Source: an uncultured Spirochaetota bacterium (GTDB lineage: Bacteria; Spirochaetota; Brevinematia; Brevinematales; JAOACQ01). Taken from it: 64,000 bases of DNA. The stretch covers positions 368,857-432,856 of the forward strand of contig CAWIGG010000006.1 in assembly GCA_963835575.1 (NCBI GenBank), given 5' to 3'. Position numbers: made by a program. Shown here piece by piece: positions 52,501 to 64,000 of the stretch (its first letter is position 1; each line of letters starts with the position of its first letter).

Positions 52501-55500
52501 CAATTTCAGGAAAATGGCGGCTTTGGGGATTAAATTGTAGGATTAGGGGCAGGAGATACAGTTAAAATCCGGACTGAATGATCATATTACCCGGGATGGT
52601 TTGTAAAATTATTAAATAAGCCATTTCAATATGACATCGCTGATTCATTTTATTGCTTTTGCGACAGACTCCCGTGTTGTGCGATGGCCGGGCCAATAAT
52701 TATATAATTATGATAAGCCACGGATGGCGTTTTGTGATAATATATTTAATCGGCAATTGTTGTTAAATATTTTTTAGAAAGACGTTCTAAACCACTACCG
52801 ATTGTGCTAATTTTATCAGGATATCCTTCATGTGCGTATTTAATATATTCTTTAACACCTTTATTTTTTGTTAAAATATATAGAATGTCTAAAAAAGAAT
52901 CCGAATCTTCCTTTTTAATAAGTTTCAGGGAATCGTAATAATATAAAATATCAATGTTATTTAAAAGAATGTTTAAAGGATATGAAAAATTCTTCGAATC
53001 ATTTAAATTATTTAGACTTTCGTTTTCTAACTTCTCATATAAATCTGATAACTCATGATTATTCAGTTCATTATAGAGATTTTTTATTAACTCAATTCTT
53101 TTCAACTGAAAATCTTTTCTGTACCTAAAAAAGGCCAGGAATAATCCTAAAATTCCAAGAATGGTGATAAAATTAGCAATCACTTTGATAATTTCAGCTA
53201 CTTCTTTCATAAATTTCCCCCTTATTTTCCCGCCAAGGATGGCGGGTATCTTTTATAAAAAGCCTTGGCCCGGCTTTCGCACAACGGCAGGCATACACGA
53301 CGTTTCGCGGCCCGTCAGGGTTGGCACGTGTTTTTGCCATCTTGCTGTAAAGCTTTACTATAAATACTATCATTTTTGAACATAAGATTCCCTCTTTAAA
53401 GAAATTACAGGCAAAAATCCGTGCCAAAGCGAAATGTGGCGAAGCCTGAGCACCGCGCGCAGTTTACGAGCACGGAGCGGAACGTGTATGCCGTGTTAAA
53501 CGCAGTTTCGCCAGCAGTTTTATAGAACTAGCCAATTGTTATTCGAAAATATAATTGTATAGTTAATCGGACTTTTAGTTTCACTCGATAATTTAGTAAT
53601 GATAATCTTTTCATTATTAATCCATTTTACTTCTCTTATTTCAGAATCATCTCTTGAGTCTTGTAATAATTCACATTCTTTTTCAAAATTGGTTTTGTTA
53701 ATTTTCCAAATTTCAGTATGATTTATTGAATATACACCATAAGAAGCAATTAAAAATCTATTAGTATTTGGAGAAAATAATGGTATGTTATTAATCTTCT
53801 TTGAAAATCCATTTCTAAAATTAATTAACAAAAAATCACCACCTTCATAATAAATATCTTCTACTAGATAATAGCCTATATCATTAAGAAAATCATAATA
53901 ACAATAGTGATCTCCTTTTTCATCATCATTATTTGGATAATAAAGCTTCTTTTCATTAATTAAATTGATAGCTAACCCATTATTATTTCGATTAAAAAAA
54001 TCTGATTGGTTTGATAATTGATATTTTTCAATAGCTTTTGCTGCCTCATAACCATTATCATATTTTGATATAATTGATTTTAAAATTATCTCTCTATTAT
54101 TAATAAAATTAGAATTAAATTGAACTGGTTCTAAAAATCCACCGAAAATATAACCAGTGGAACTATCATCAAGAGTAATCTTATACCAATAGTTTTGGTG
54201 ATTTTTAATTTTAGAAATAATATTAGTTAAAAACAAATCAGTTAACAAGCTTCCATGATTTAATTGTAAAAGTATTTTGGACTTTATATTAGGTTTTTCT
54301 CTTACGAATGATGAAGAAGCTGTTACTTTGCATATTTGATCAGGATAAAATCGAACAATTTTTGTAGAACAACTTGTGAAAATAATAATAATAAAAAGTA
54401 TTAATATTCTATTCATATCATAACTCCTGCTGGTGAAATTGCGTTTAACGGTCGGCATAGCTGACGTTTCTGAGCCTTAGAAAACGTTAGTTTTCTTGGC
54501 GAAGAAATGTGTCCGAAGGACCGAGGAGCGCCCGGAGCCCGCAGGCGAGGACGCACCGGAGCAGCTATGCCGTGTTATGCGATGCCGGCTCTCGACTTCC
54601 ACCTCGCACGGCAAACCTAATTGTAATATTTTCAACTAAATATATCAACTATGAAAATGGATTTCCCGTTCTTTTATTCCGTTTCATTTTTTTTAATTTC
54701 AAGATTTAAAAATCAACAAAGTATGAAAATTAAAAATCCAGTTTTCCCTTTTTCCAAAATTTTAAACCTTAAAGTTCAAACATCAACCGGTTTGCCGTGC
54801 CCTTCCAGAAACAGACCCTTCAGCTTTTTGTTTTTCAGAACTGAATCCAGCAGCCGGTTTCGCATAACGGTCGGCGTTTGCGAAGCCGGCGAGGCTTAGA
54901 GCTTCGCTCTTGCCGAGCCGGTTTGGTGAGCCTTGCGTTGCGCTTCTCCGGCCTACCTATGGCAAGGCGAACCCGAGCACCGCAGCCCGTAGCGACTGAG
55001 CGGAGGGCGAGGAGCACAGCGCAAACGCCGTGTTGGGCGAATGTAGCGTGCGACTTTTATAATTTAAGCATTTCTGCATGTGCTTTTTTCGTTGCAGCAT
55101 TGAAAGTATCATTCATTTCTATCATTTTATCGAAACTTCCGCCTTTTTTTAACATATCAGAAATATATGATAATATTTCAGTTGCTTTTTCTATCACATC
55201 TTTTCGATTAATTGGTGACAATGATGTAAGTCTTTTTATTCTCATTTCAAGTTCTGGTAATTTTGAATTAAGCTCAGTGCATTCTTTTTGATATTTTATT
55301 CCAATTTCGTTATTTACATCTTTTAATGATTTTAATTGATGTAATAATGTCATATATCGTTCAACACATTCCATAAATTCTTTACAGGATAGAAAAAACT
55401 CATCCGCCCATTTTCTATTAAAATCATATTTTTTTGATACTTCATTTTTAATACTTTCAATACGGCGTAATATAATTATTCCAAAGATGCTTGCAATTAT

Positions 55501-61500: not shown

Positions 61501-64000
61501 AAGTATTTGTTAGCTAAATACTTCTATTACTTTATTCTAATTTTACCAAAAGATTATTGACGAATTAAAAGTATATAATATTGATTTTTTTATATCAAAT
61601 ATTTACTAATAAACTATTGATAAAATAAGGGTTGTCGACCTTATCAGAAAAAATTTGGTGTAGGTAATTTTAGAATATTTTATGTTATTATTATGGTATC
61701 TTTTTGATTTATCTACACCGAAACAGCCCGATAAGCGCGACAACGCTATCGGGCATTTTTATTAGGGGATAATTATGACCGCGAAAGAAAGGAGAGAATT
61801 CAAACAAAAAAGGATTGAGAATTACCATAAAAATAATGATATGCTCCGTCCTGCTGAAGCCGCCGAGATGTTTCCTTCTTTTTCAGTTGACTATTTCTAT
61901 GATCATTGGCAGGAACTGGGGGAAAGATTCTCAAAACCGGCAGCAGGGCAACTTATTTTCCGGTTCCTCGATTCAAAATTGAAAAATACCTGGGTATTGA
62001 AGAAAAAGCGACAATTGAATATTTTCTAAACCTCTCATAAGAGGAGAAAGAGCGGGTAGTGTTGGAATTAATGCCTTTCATCGGAGTAATTTATTTAATC
62101 AATAGTTTTGTAATCCTGGGGAAAGTAATGAGTTTGCAGCATTCCTTTGATATAAATGTGGCGGCAGAATATGGAATCATTGAAGCGATAATGATAAAAA
62201 ATTTCCAGTTTTGGATTGTAAAAAATAAGGCAAACGGACAGAATTTTTTTAATGGACATTATTGGACTTACAACTCAGTGAAAGCTTATGAAAGACTCTA
62301 TCCGTATCTGACTCGAAATCAAATTGAATATACCCTGAAGAAACTGGAAGAAAAAGGCATCCTGCTAAGCGGGAATTATAACGAAATAAAATTTGACCGG
62401 ACAAAATGGTATGCTTTTGCGGATGAAGACAAATGGTTATGCATTTCGGAAATTTCCGAAATGGATTCCGGGAAATTCAGAAATCGAGTTTCAAATTTTC
62501 CGAAATCACTACCAGATATTAAACCTGATGATAAACCAGATACTAAAAATCTCTCTCCTTCAGAAATCCGCAAAATTGTGAAAAAATATGTCGAGGCAAT
62601 GGATAACATTAAGAATGTTGATGCCATAGTCAATCATATAATCAAAAATGAACCGCTTCAAGTCAAGGAAATTATTGAGAGGTATGAGAGAGAAAAAGAA
62701 AAAAAGCGTTTGGAACTGGAGCATAAGGAAAGGGAAAAATCAACTGAATATAGCGCTATTCCAGAAGATCAATGGAAAGAATTGTATAAAGAAATTTAAT
62801 ATAAGCATTGAGCTGATAAAGCAAAGGAGTCGGCATGGTTACAATTTCAAAAATGTATAATTCTATGGAAAAATATGAAAAGGACAATTACTATCTGAAA
62901 GACAAAAATGATAAAATTGAATTCCATGGCAAACTGGCTGATGATTTGAAATTGTCTGTCCTCGATGATAAGACTTATCAGGGCTTGATCAATGGTAAGA
63001 ATGCTTATGGAAAAAGGATAATCACTCTGGCCGGTAACGGCGAACACGATCCCGGCAGGGATCTGACTTTATCGCCTGATAAAAGTATCGGTGTAACATA
63101 TTACCTCTCTAAAAATCCCGGCGACGCGGAAAAAATTATGACGGCTCATAAACATGTGTCTCGATCACCCTGAAATACATTGAAGATAATCTCGTCCAAT
63201 CGACTTACAATCATGGAAAAAACGGTTATGAGCATATTAACACCGAGAAAATGCTCTATGTTTTATTCGACCATCACACCACCGTGACCTCGATCCTCAG
63301 CCGCATACTCATGCTGTTATATTTAATATTACAAAAACCTCTGACAACAAGTTTAAAGCGATTAATAACAGTGCTATTTACGACAACAGGAAGTTGATCA
63401 TGATGATATATGAAAACCAGCTTTGCCGGGGCTTGCGAGAACAGAAATTCGATGCGTCCATTGATAATGATGGATATACAAAATTAAATGGGTTTGACCA
63501 GGAAGTCAGGGGAAACTTCGAAAAGAACCAAAGTAATGAAGGAGAAACTGACGGAGATAGCAGAAGAAAAAGAGCTGGGTGAAAATACAAAATCCCTTGA
63601 AAAAGCATTGATTCTTTCCACCCGGAAGGAAAAGCAATCGGTTGATCTGGAAGCTGTGAAAAAGGTCTGGCAGAATGAAATGAAAGAGTTGGGGAAAAGT
63701 GTCGGAGGATTGCCGAAGTCTTTTGAAAATCTTCCGGAAAATTCCATCAAAATATTCCCACCGGAATATTATATAAAACAATCTCTTCAAATTATAACGG
63801 AAGAAAAGGCTGTGTTTGCTAAAAAGGATATCTTGGAAAAAGCGTTGAATATATCTAAAGGCAATGCGGATTTTAATAGCCTGATAAAAGCGTTTCAAAA
63901 GAATGGGGAAATTGAACATCTTAAAGATTATGAAAAAGTCAGGAATAGTTATCAGACAGTATATACGACCAGAGAGATAAAAAACCTTGAATTGGAAAAC

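Follow-up and report, generated by a model that had tools for sequence, protein, structure and literature searches.

A plasmid-like MOBF element with a putative I2-less cassette platform in two loading states in an uncultured Spirochaetota bacterium

Integrons are defined, and detected by software, by means of the I2 insertion in their integrase (PMC4889954; PMC9668308; PMC2426708). How I2 and attC sites could have arisen without each other has been presented as a chicken-and-egg problem (Escudero et al., PMC4792948). Mobile integrons are assigned to classes 1–5; a survey of 2006 plasmids counted 24 integrons on them, of which a single one fell outside class 1 (PMC4889954), and the accessible text of two further papers covers phyla and attC models only (PMC8618304; PMC8352920). 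A related arrangement, rAID-1, has been reported from Bacteroidales, namely an XerD-family recombinase at the 5' end of co-directional, low-GC genes with repeats 'reminiscent of integrons' (Ross et al., bioRxiv 10.1101/471110). The rAID-1 criteria are a 5' XerD-like recombinase that shares more than 44% identity with BF9343_RS08045 of B. fragilis, at least two co-directional downstream genes with a GC content of 41% or less, and a cargo of genes for interbacterial immunity in a host from the Bacteroidales; the available part of that description gives no cassette boundary, attI, or mechanism (bioRxiv 10.1101/471110). A literature search that left out most subscription journals turned up no account of a cassette system that is both plasmid-borne and I2-less.

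The window analysed here is a stretch of 64,000 nucleotides of contig C6 (CAWIGG010000006.1, positions 368,857 to 432,856) in the assembly GCA_963835575.1 of an uncultured Spirochaetota bacterium (Brevinematales; JAOACQ01). An earlier note had described in it a MOBF-mobilisable element, occurring also on contigs C1 and C7, with a second recombinase of integron type and with first cassettes that differ between copies. The recombinase and its neighbouring sites are as follows:

59355..59383, minus strand: sigma-70-like promoter match (10/12) just 5' of the recombinase; consensus match only
58291..59346, minus strand: cassette recombinase gene, tyrosine recombinase of 351 aa (Pfam/profile, structure, and residue matches)
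58202..58262, minus strand: attI-like site, two 18-nt palindromic direct repeats (58245–58262 and 58208–58225; repeat search) 37 nt apart, then the crossover G|TT at 58202|58201

The 351-aa enzyme is composed of a HARP-like N-terminus, a SAM-like core-binding domain, and a catalytic domain. The catalytic residues R205, K230, H295, R298, H321, and Y330 are intact in C6 and C7 but broken in the C1 consensus. The domain search gave no HARP match for the N-terminus of this particular protein; such a match was obtained for 51 of 113 members of the recombinase family, and residues 1–72 had no match at 0.9 or above in the ESM Atlas. The top match in both sequence and fold was the integron integrase VchIntIA. 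The alignment with its structure (2a3v) is interrupted at query positions 251/276 and target positions 181/248, with about 42 residues missing: the insertion region comprises 24 residues, as compared to 66 in VchIntIA, and the IntI-specific additional domain (I2) is absent. The TIGR02249 score is 212 bits, below the cut-off of 265, which no recombinase anywhere in the genome exceeded; NF040815 (XerA-like) was the sole profile model passed. The label 'integron-type' fails the IntI test: this enzyme, with a HARP-like N-terminus and without the integron insertion, is not an IntI by the domain that defines the class.

Identity to the recombinase that heads the chromosomal array (C2:46723–47745) is 47.2%, close to the 46–47% given previously. 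The nearest relatives (55–58% identity) all reside in other genomes, and a sister relationship of the two recombinases of this genome was rejected (AU p 0.0185; tree of 28 rows). These two results rule out a recent duplicate of the chromosomal recombinase. The best explanation, which we regard as probable, is that the second recombinase was acquired independently and belongs to the insertion-less family, as does the enzyme at the head of the chromosomal array. The promoter consensus scan of the region yielded 27 sites versus 14.9 expected, with no minus-strand match between the recombinase start and attI, where a cassette promoter (Pc) was sought. The match 5' of the recombinase could putatively read through into the cassettes.

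The cassette array extends down to about 39550 and does not begin at 52746, as had been proposed. From the attI-like site to the distal end it contains the following units:

56766..58201, minus strand: cassette 1 (1436 bp), only in C6 and single copy, 395-aa lipoprotein-like ORF (56966–58153) and attC; 14-nt start/R'' pairing
55598..56765, minus strand: cassettes 2 and 3, variants a and b of an ORF-poor unit of 584 bp; eight copies in three arrays
54868..55597, minus strand: cassette 4, 164-aa ORF; missing from C7
54449..54867, minus strand: cassette 5 (419 bp), without ORF; first 299 nt identical in C7
53285..54448, minus strand: cassette 6, SH3-domain ORF (312 aa); 99.9% copy in an integrase-less array at the end of C2
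48213..53284, minus strand: cassette 7, 154-aa ORF; attC split by an IS1182-family element
48394–52671: this IS1182-family element, with a 4-bp target duplication and itself holding an IS21 (49446–52037)
46911..48212, minus strand: cassette 8, 358-aa ORF; 10-nt start/R'' pairing
43038..46910, minus strand: cassette 9, DUF4468 ORF; IS481-family element right after the start, second IS1182 type in attC
39553..43037, minus strand: cassette 10 or two fused cassettes, ORFs of 97, 72, and 252 aa; group II intron at 40424–42464
38030..39553: distal array end, a short IS1182 end remnant, then chromosomal DNA 5' of an acrB-like gene (flank and IS comparison)
38116–39511: IS256 copy splitting the IS1182 remnant, with a 9-bp target duplication

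In 14 of the 15 cassettes of C6 and C7, the cassette end is the reverse complement of the cassette's own start over at least 9 nt; the unit 39553..43037 is the only one without pairing ends. Among non-redundant cassettes, nine of ten pair their start with R'', a number reached in none of 200,000 permutations (permutation mean 1.3). Only GTT is kept at the junctions, the bases that follow varying by cassette. The first cassettes of C6 and of C7 are both joined in register at G|TT, and each of the three unique cassettes of these contigs is in register as well. The R'' and R' boxes lie 127–222 nt apart and meet only through folding. In all five correctly built circle-form attC sites (the fold of cassette 1 was excluded), the R boxes are paired and the bottom strand is slightly more stable than the top one. 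The folds display a short asymmetric bulge of 1 versus 3–4 nt between R box and stem, from which the classical attC loop differs, and in some sites one bulged base higher up the stem. An attI with a GTT crossover, attC sites paired through R'' and R', and cassettes in tandem constitute a true cassette array. A similar attI layout occurs behind relatives of the recombinase among the loci listed. All nine cassette ORFs measured are co-directional and have a GC content of 21.5–27.4%. No resistance cassette was recognised with Pfam and PADLOC, and no immunity family was found among the cassette ORFs with Pfam. A group II intron targeting attC was ruled out since the intron in 39553..43037 sits between ORFs.

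The locus resembles rAID-1, as far as the accessible description goes, in the 5' recombinase, the co-directional low-GC genes, and the repeats. The 351-aa enzyme also appears to be related to rAID-1 recombinases at 42–44% identity, a range taken from two rAID-like loci, found in records of B. ovatus and P. distasonis (44.1% and 42.0%, respectively, over residues 90–348), and not from BF9343_RS08045; both loci match the family profile with E about 3e-92 and show the same start/end pairing. Unlike rAID-1, where the sites reportedly measure about 45 nt, the C6 locus has sites of 127–222 nt, cargo without recognisable immunity genes, and a host from another phylum rather than from Bacteroidales; the N-terminal domains do not align, and the C6 recombinase is linked to a Rep/ParA/MOBF backbone. 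With IntI integrons, as portrayed in the accessible sections of PMC3607928, PMC4889954, PMC9668308, and PMC4792948, the locus shares a recombinase, an attI with G|TT, tandem hairpin-closed cassettes, ORF-less cassettes, and duplication to the first position; the recombinase points towards the array as in the co-oriented Treponema integrons. It differs in the enzyme, which has an extra HARP-like N-terminal domain in place of none and no additional IntI-specific domain, in the attI composed of two palindromes 37 nt apart, and in a tighter R-box spacer.

The ORF-poor cassette, whose size had been given as 599 nt, is a unit of 584 bp with two variants, a and b, which are 97.3% alike. Its longest ATG ORF has 52 codons. 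Two copies are located in C6, three in C7, and three in C2; no match was found in Rfam, and the search of 40 relatives gave no real match, only a single one of 36 nt. In C7, cassette 3 is fused to cassette 5 exactly at G|TT, cassette 4 being gone, and the attC of cassette 5 is interrupted by IS1182. At the distal end, where the C6 array runs into chromosomal DNA, the IS flanks are self-consistent. The empty chromosomal site was not recovered, congener matches to the flanking acrB being only 30–31%; in one genome, an 89% copy of this acrB is preceded by a tolC-like gene, which the C6 locus lacks.

The copies are indeed over 99.6% alike across 5.8–6.2 kb: C6 and C7 share 99.66% over 5819 nt, C6 and C1 99.66% over 5806 nt, and C1 and C7 99.84% over 6155 nt. 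The end of identity behind the recombinase was also located correctly, C1 terminating on the crossover G and the other two contigs running together through G and TT before they split. The count of three occurrences is a different matter: two contigs end within the repeat and the third at the branch point, and the 23 differences among them (14 private to C6, six to C1, and three to C7; ten are indels) look like consensus errors. Probably, C1, C6, and C7 are one repeat written three times. Most likely, this repeat has two left neighbours and represents either population variants or a pair of copies rather than three. The earlier note had itself allowed for variants of a single element within a mixed population; this is the likeliest explanation for the copy number, and it leaves the signs of cassette exchange in place.

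The two different loadings of the one attI are nevertheless genuine. The ORF-poor cassette is, as described earlier, first in C7 and further down in C6 and present in eight copies. C7 holds a copy of it in first place and has kept the a–b pair downstream, so that gain, loss, and duplication replace the cassette reordering suggested in the earlier note. A first-place copy with a retained downstream pair is the copy-and-paste pattern of integrons. Duplication to the first position is among the described outcomes of single-strand excision (PMC8024014, accessible part). The duplicated cassettes fit this process and also an exchange between sister copies. Cassettes are shared with a third array at 99.9–100%. 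Reads of one run with 0.06 of the words gave four short pieces on the recombinase and the relaxase, without differences, and nothing across attI; they have no bearing on junctions or habitat.

Upstream of the platform, the element carries these genes:

59394..60641, minus strand: hsdM (type I methyltransferase) pseudogene, HsdM_N and N6_Mtase on two ORFs; frameshift common to C1, C6, and C7; 3' part missing
60727..61398, minus strand: XRE/CI-like HTH repressor, 223 aa (HTH_3, E 2e-15; PHROG repressor families)
61775..62106, plus strand: small gene in divergent orientation to the repressor gene, with 110 aa in the C7 version (ORF lists); reading varies between contigs
62128..62799, plus strand: gene resembling replication initiators, 223 aa (its identical counterpart in C1 matches phrog_11233, 'replication initiation protein', with E 3e-34)
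62835..64000, plus strand: MOBF (TrwC-type) relaxase-helicase gene, 5' part, frameshifted and cut by the contig end (partial matches to NF041492/TIGR02686)
C1:3794–6523: whole MOBF relaxase-helicase, 909 aa (TrwC, E 3e-55, and AAA_30 helicase)

MOBF mobilisable plasmids and integrative mobilisable elements possess a TrwC-type relaxase fused to a helicase, Rep, and ParA, and no mating channel. The element on C6 and C1 has this TrwC relaxase-helicase, Rep, and ParA (phrog_164, E 6e-34; a weak Arc-like match lies behind parA) but differs in that no coupling protein, oriT, or separate element integrase was identified. The C1 relaxase has N-terminal tyrosines, what we take to be the HUH motif, and a fused helicase; the frameshift in the window stems from C6-private indels. 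The small divergent gene, which had no Pfam or PHROG match, may have a Cro/excisionase-like role, as suggested by its position. The hsdM gene loses its 3' end at the point where the promoter region of the recombinase starts, and a related HsdM segment aligned over residues 1–165 of 314 only; the missing part was sought at the far array end and ruled out there. The relaxase, HTH, and type I methylase genes named earlier were all matched, with the qualifications that the single hsdM is frameshifted and that only C1 holds a whole relaxase. The genes for recombinase, Rep, ParA, and relaxase can each be read intact on one contig or more.

Taken together, Rep, ParA, the repressor pair, the MOBF relaxase, and the broken hsdM form a plasmid-like backbone, and its gene content suggests mobilisation. 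In the assembly (genome 94% complete), PF02534 had no match and PF10412 one weak 51-column match in another gene; transfer would therefore need a helper. The repeat search identified no oriT, iteron, or terminal att site, inverted repeats near C1:2850–2995 and in rep being oriT candidates only, and the start of C1 showed no match or overlap with any contig. The closest relaxases (33–36% identity) are lone chromosomal genes of congeners; a lone MOBF gene occupies a fixed chromosomal site in four of four congeners and, therefore, a relaxase alone is no proof of mobility in this genus. The element shares with mobile integrons a plasmid-type backbone, a short array, and cassettes common with chromosomal arrays; it differs in its non-IntI enzyme, in that no transposon was found around the platform, and in that no resistance cassette was recognised.

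Two complete Chryseobacterium plasmids have a parA–recombinase backbone in common (89.7%); it stops at the G preceding TT, and different first cassettes follow. Together with the pairing test, they sustain, more firmly than the note could, the earlier idea of an integron-like platform with variable first cassettes; its integron part is limited by the enzyme, which is not an IntI, and its mobile part by resting on gene content with no coupling protein found. First-cassette pairing was detected behind relatives at 8 of 20 testable same-phylum loci versus 0 of 27 upstream controls, and at 9 of 58 testable metagenome loci (control, 1 of 32). Some homologs belong to IS91-type pairs and, given also the 9 of 58, family membership does not imply an array. 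None of 109 loci, most of them short, had backbone proteins beside the recombinase relative; the closest relatives with long upstream flanks sit among chromosomal genes. Related loci numbered three in genome contigs and none in viral contigs, with one partial match in a phage collection. The family occurs on Bacteroidota plasmids and, in truncated form, ahead of tet(X3). At C2:2028.3 kb, an attI-like site that lacks an integrase has an array of its own, and cassettes are therefore loadable in trans.

Several other readings of the locus were considered. The same anatomy could result from ordinary double-strand Xer/dif-like recombination, in which paired cassette ends are duplex half-sites and hairpins are incidental. 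The lack of an I2 insertion, NF040815 as the only model passed, and the 1 versus 3–4 nt spacer, unlike the classical attC loop, agree with this reading; it has to contend with R'' and R' being 127–222 nt apart, with junctions at which GTT alone is constant, and with VchIntIA as the best match in sequence and fold, and we think it unlikely. We give a still smaller chance to a plasmid with an empty platform that entered existing chromosomal arrays by attI × attC recombination as a giant cassette, the first cassettes marking integration sites and the cassettes being a property of the host. It would account for the passage of the C6 array into chromosomal DNA with self-consistent IS flanks, for the 584-bp and SH3 cassettes common to C6 and the chromosomal array at the C2 end, and for C1 stopping exactly at the crossover. 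Yet no other array contains the cassettes peculiar to C6 and C7, complete plasmids from elsewhere have arrays of their own, the a–b pair and cassette B have the same order in C6 and C7, which points to one ancestral array, and no attC-like site was found in C1, itself incomplete, where the reciprocal junction is expected.

Distinctly unlikely is also a stranded remnant whose attI is loaded in trans by the chromosomal C2 recombinase, as the integrase-less array may be, with the second recombinase and the relaxase idle. The broken hsdM, the missing coupling protein (PF02534, PF10412), the lone MOBF genes of all four congeners, and the third attI-like site, which has no enzyme and whose first cassette copies that of the recombinase-headed C2 array, would be in line with it. 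So would the broken C1 recombinase and C6 relaxase, but each of these breaks is private to one contig and near a contig end, all four key genes are intact somewhere, and a promoter match precedes the recombinase. An assembly artefact, with C6 and C7 mis-joined among repeated cassettes and IS copies and only a single array in existence, seems very improbable. Contigs do break at arrays and repeats, the 1.2-kb a–b pair is common to both so that mis-phasing of its flanks is conceivable, no target duplication surrounds 5 of 30 IS256 copies, and the IS1182 in C7 is opposite in orientation to the five other copies beside an R'' site. Still, one attI in one molecule cannot precede both the unique 1436-bp and the 584-bp cassette, the three unique cassettes are each in register, and mis-phasing would affect which of the loadings is the chromosomal one but would still leave two of them.

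We favour a plasmid-derived element with a captured I2-less cassette platform and with gain and loss of cassettes, and consider this explanation reasonably probable. The cassette grammar, the exact junctions, the two loadings of one attI, and the 99.9–100% cassette sharing supply its sequence-level basis. A plasmid-derived element with Rep, ParA and a small partner, the repressor pair, and the MOBF relaxase-helicase would have acquired a compact platform of promoter, recombinase, and attI, whose arrival cut hsdM. The second recombinase presumably does the cassette work: it would insert circular cassettes at G|TT of attI and take them out between attC sites. The attC sites may be used as folded single strands, with the HARP-like domain doing part of the job of I2, and the element may move by conjugation through the coupling protein and channel of a helper. 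In the simplest history, a common array a-b-Y-B would have given rise to two lines. The first would have gained the 395-aa cassette at attI; the second would have lost Y, gained a 226-aa cassette, followed at attI by a copy of a, and received IS1182 in B. The C6 element would reside in the chromosome, joined at the far array end through an IS1182 scar.

A stronger reading, which we hold only tentatively and regard as somewhat doubtful, is a second class of mobile integron. It would combine an I2-less recombinase, a HARP-like fork-binding domain, and folded single-stranded attC with a MOBF plasmid that carries cassettes from one chromosomal array to another and from cell to cell, the single strands made by the relaxase exposing attC hairpins during transfer. 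Such a system would be a living pre-I2 stage and a possible unrecognised route of gene capture and spread. The novelty of the locus lies in a relaxase-bearing backbone with two cassette states.

Papers on tet(X) mention an adjacent 'xerD' and, in their accessible parts, do not settle what it does (PMC7473080; PMC11194056); the link would make sense if it were a cassette recombinase. An I2-less enzyme with in-register cassette arrays makes the question of how I2 and attC originated directly testable, and the C6/C7 locus offers a compact test kit with one enzyme, one attI, and two insertion products made in nature. Should the backbone prove transferable, I2-less cassette capture would not be limited to chromosomes, and surveys that count mobile integrons as classes 1–5 would miss such platforms. 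A plasmid-like element with an attI and two cassette loadings in one assembly suggests that an overlooked system of gene shuffling also exists in portable form.

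The window comprises the terminal 64 kb of contig C6, in an assembly of 4.39 Mb and seven contigs (genome completeness 94%). It contains a recombinase gene and a cassette array with the following features:

58291-59346, minus strand: recombinase
58202|58201: crossover of the attI site
to 39553: ten cassette units behind the crossover
48394-52671, 43240-44961 and 39553: IS1182-family insertions, three types in all, immediately following the AAC of R'' and with short target duplications; one holds an IS21 element inside

The attI site consists of two 18-nt palindromes 37 nt apart, and a like layout is present behind several relatives of the recombinase. 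In a cassette that was once circular, R'', the left arm of the closing site, is the reverse complement of the cassette's own first bases. Such pairing over at least 9 nt was detected in nine of ten units in C6 and in all five in contig C7. Within the non-repeated set (10 of 15 cassettes) nine pair, a value reached by none of 200,000 permutations. Pairing of R'' with the start of the following unit extends over just 3-4 nt, save between two near-identical neighbours. The sole non-pairing unit, number 10 from attI, contains a group II intron. In circle-form attC sites the R boxes were paired on folding, the bottom strand being slightly more stable at all five correctly built sites.

The far end of the array consists of a short IS1182 remnant, split by IS256 (9-bp duplication), and then runs into chromosomal DNA. 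In the assembly the C6 array is therefore chromosomal; across the group II intron there is no duplication to confirm the join. An IS481-family element lies behind a cassette start in the array (45555-46890), and this and four further copies all sit 20-22 nt behind a cassette-start GTT; IS481 is thus a second IS family preferring cassette sites. Elsewhere in the window, at 26100-29338, three tyrosine recombinase genes stand side by side, which we take to be a RIT-like trio.

The same attI is loaded in two ways. In C6 it is followed by cassettes X (395 aa), a, b, Y (164 aa), B, SH3 and further cassettes, and in C7 by a, Z (226 aa), a, b, B and IS1182. X, Y and Z occur once each; the 584-bp ORF-poor cassette exists as variants a and b and totals eight copies over three arrays. 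Because X and a cannot both adjoin one attI, two molecular forms must have existed in the sequenced DNA. C7 has a in first position and still keeps the a-b pair further down, which matches the 'copy and paste' outcome reported for integrons in PMC8024014. The absence of Y from C7 reflects either exact deletion or a form that never had it.

The earlier note placed the element three times in the genome. Its sequence is indeed present in C1, C6 and C7, C6 being 99.66% identical to each of the others over 5.8 kb, and the break point behind the recombinase is common to all: C1 stops on the crossover G, and C6 and C7 diverge past GTT. The count of three copies probably falls. The contigs differ in 23 columns; every difference is confined to a single contig (C6 in 14 cases), and such differences disrupt the C6 relaxase and the C1 recombinase, close to contig ends. 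Judging from how long-read assemblers generally extend contigs, they are probably consensus errors, and C1, C6 and C7 a single repeat that has two left neighbours. The two loadings would represent either population variants or two copies per cell; the one read run available spans no junction and favours neither. An assembly artefact is one of the rival readings; the feature itself is genuine, and its copy number, mobility and activity we infer.

The recombinase shares 47.2% identity with the insertion-less enzyme heading the chromosomal array on C2, close to the 46-47% noted before. The label 'integron-type' could not be upheld: the protein passes NF040815 and fails TIGR02249, and the domain with the IntI-specific insertion I2 is absent (24 residues vs 66 in the integron integrase structure 2a3v). 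By these sequence features it is not an IntI, and no gene in this genome passes the IntI cut-off. Its top solved-structure match is 2a3v, by sequence as well as by fold, the fold being modelled with confidence (pLDDT 90). It has about 70 additional N-terminal residues; HARP was matched by 51 of 113 aligned relatives (E up to 0.01) and not by the window's own recombinase.

The family comprises at least 4307 proteins matching at E 1e-60. Relatives occur in 95 of 301 same-phylum genomes, and the enzyme is present in 45 of 54 genomes of family f15. Of 29 loci taken behind same-phylum relatives, 9 were too short to test and 8 of the other 20 showed first-cassette pairing (upstream control 0/27); of 80 metagenome loci, 22 were too short and 9 of the other 58 showed it (control 1/32). 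Certain homologues are paired with IS91 and have no array. The window recombinase and the C2 enzyme were rejected as sisters (AU p 0.0185); the former clusters with genome G304 and a MAG titled Bacillota, which fits separate acquisition of the two enzymes. Long arrays lie behind several same-phylum relatives (loci L048-L050, L045, L054), and genome G103 has 16 consecutive attC sites in 17 kb.

Other such sites occur in this genome. A third array (C2:2028290-2045547 and C5:1-6450) begins with an attI-like site and lacks a recombinase; the cassette in first position is 99.3% identical to the one that opens the C2 recombinase array, and the array has cassettes in common with C6 and C7. An attI-like stretch precedes a single AT-rich ORF within a two-component operon (C4:357077-357640), and several lone attC-like sites are dispersed across the chromosome. 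Near a contig end (C4:1047000-1064000), primase-like and recombinase genes form an inverted duplication, real or artefactual, beside RHS-like ORFs.

The part of the element in C1 encodes a replication initiator (phrog_11233, E 3e-34), a 909-aa TrwC relaxase-helicase, a 173-aa protein without assignment, ParA with a small Arc-like partner, an ankyrin protein and small ORFs. The other flank carries a repressor and hsdM, which is frameshifted in C1, C6 and C7. Since hsdM ends where the predicted recombinase promoter region begins, and the remainder of the gene was found nowhere else, a backbone that already existed most likely acquired the platform. A search for two families of coupling protein in this 94% complete genome found none, no oriT or end site of the element was identified, and no overlap of the start of C1 with any contig was found.

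MOBF genes are rare in the phylum (8/401 genomes). In each of the four congeners a lone MOBF gene occupies the same fixed position in the chromosome, and the cassette recombinase is absent from all of them; no backbone proteins were found near recombinase relatives in 109 mostly short loci. Both observations count against easy conclusions. The congener genes (L075-L082, genomes G001-G004) lie close to ispE and tRNA-Gln in an ordinary chromosomal gene setting, have chromosomal GC, and are the closest relatives (33-36%) of the element's relaxase; possibly they are domesticated relaxases. An IS occupies that site in genome G000. A same-order contig (L083, G019:C56) carries a MOBF relaxase, ParA/ParB, Rep and type I restriction genes, a backbone resembling this element; its extracted part has no match to the cassette recombinase.

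Complete plasmids provide precedents. PLSDB holds 77 records with a match at E 1e-55, of which nine match over most of the length. Nine records drawn from two listings were examined. Two Chryseobacterium plasmids share a parA-recombinase stretch (89.7% identical) that stops at the G before TT and continues into different cassettes, the same break pattern as in C6 and C7, here on closed molecules, although these are typed non-mobilisable. A 15-kb Chondrinema plasmid carries rep, parA, recombinase and cassette-like genes. Two Bacteroidales records have rAID-like immunity-gene arrays whose recombinases are 42-44% identical and whose sites, though shorter, pair at the ends in the same way. On two MOBB plasmids a short relative is present and no array follows it, and a further record represents an IS91 pair. 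In NZ_CP041688 (L168:15104-22850), a gene-less cassette of 172 bp is present in four copies, one of them in first position, paralleling the 584-bp cassette, and attC sites are interrupted by IS110 and a group II intron. NZ_CP041297 (L172:6049-8170) has a truncated relative (47%), an attI-like palindrome with GTT and then tet(X3), behind which lies an R''-like motif without pairing to the start, its hairpin cut off.

The assembled DNA itself establishes how the cassettes are built, that insertion at attI is exact in both forms, that three arrays have cassettes in common and that plasmid-type genes lie beside the platform. Very probably the adjacent recombinase is responsible, inserting cassettes at attI; loading in trans by the C2 enzyme is possible because the third attI-like site has an array but no enzyme. 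A less likely rival is that an empty platform integrated into host arrays; the closed Chryseobacterium molecules, which carry arrays of their own, speak against it. The attC arms are 127-222 nt apart and would meet solely by folding, so attC probably acts as a folded single strand that brings them together, and duplex recombination appears the weaker reading. That the HARP-like N-terminal domain binds the hairpin or fork is about as likely as not, and so is transfer of the element given a helper. A stranded remnant is a less likely rival, on whose side stand the broken hsdM and the two-family search that found no coupling protein.

The nearest described system is rAID-1, the Bacteroidales recombinase-associated systems. 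By the criteria of 10.1101/471110, the gene layout agrees, identity is borderline, and cargo and host differ; the motif logos published there may already depict such sites. In its workings the locus would resemble an integron, though it is not one of the IntI kind. The literature searched, of incomplete coverage, yielded no description of a cassette system that lacks I2 and sits on an element with a relaxase. The origin of integron recombination is treated as an open question in PMC4792948. The insertion-less family bears on how this recombination began, and the present locus contributes a presumably portable backbone with two natural insertion products.
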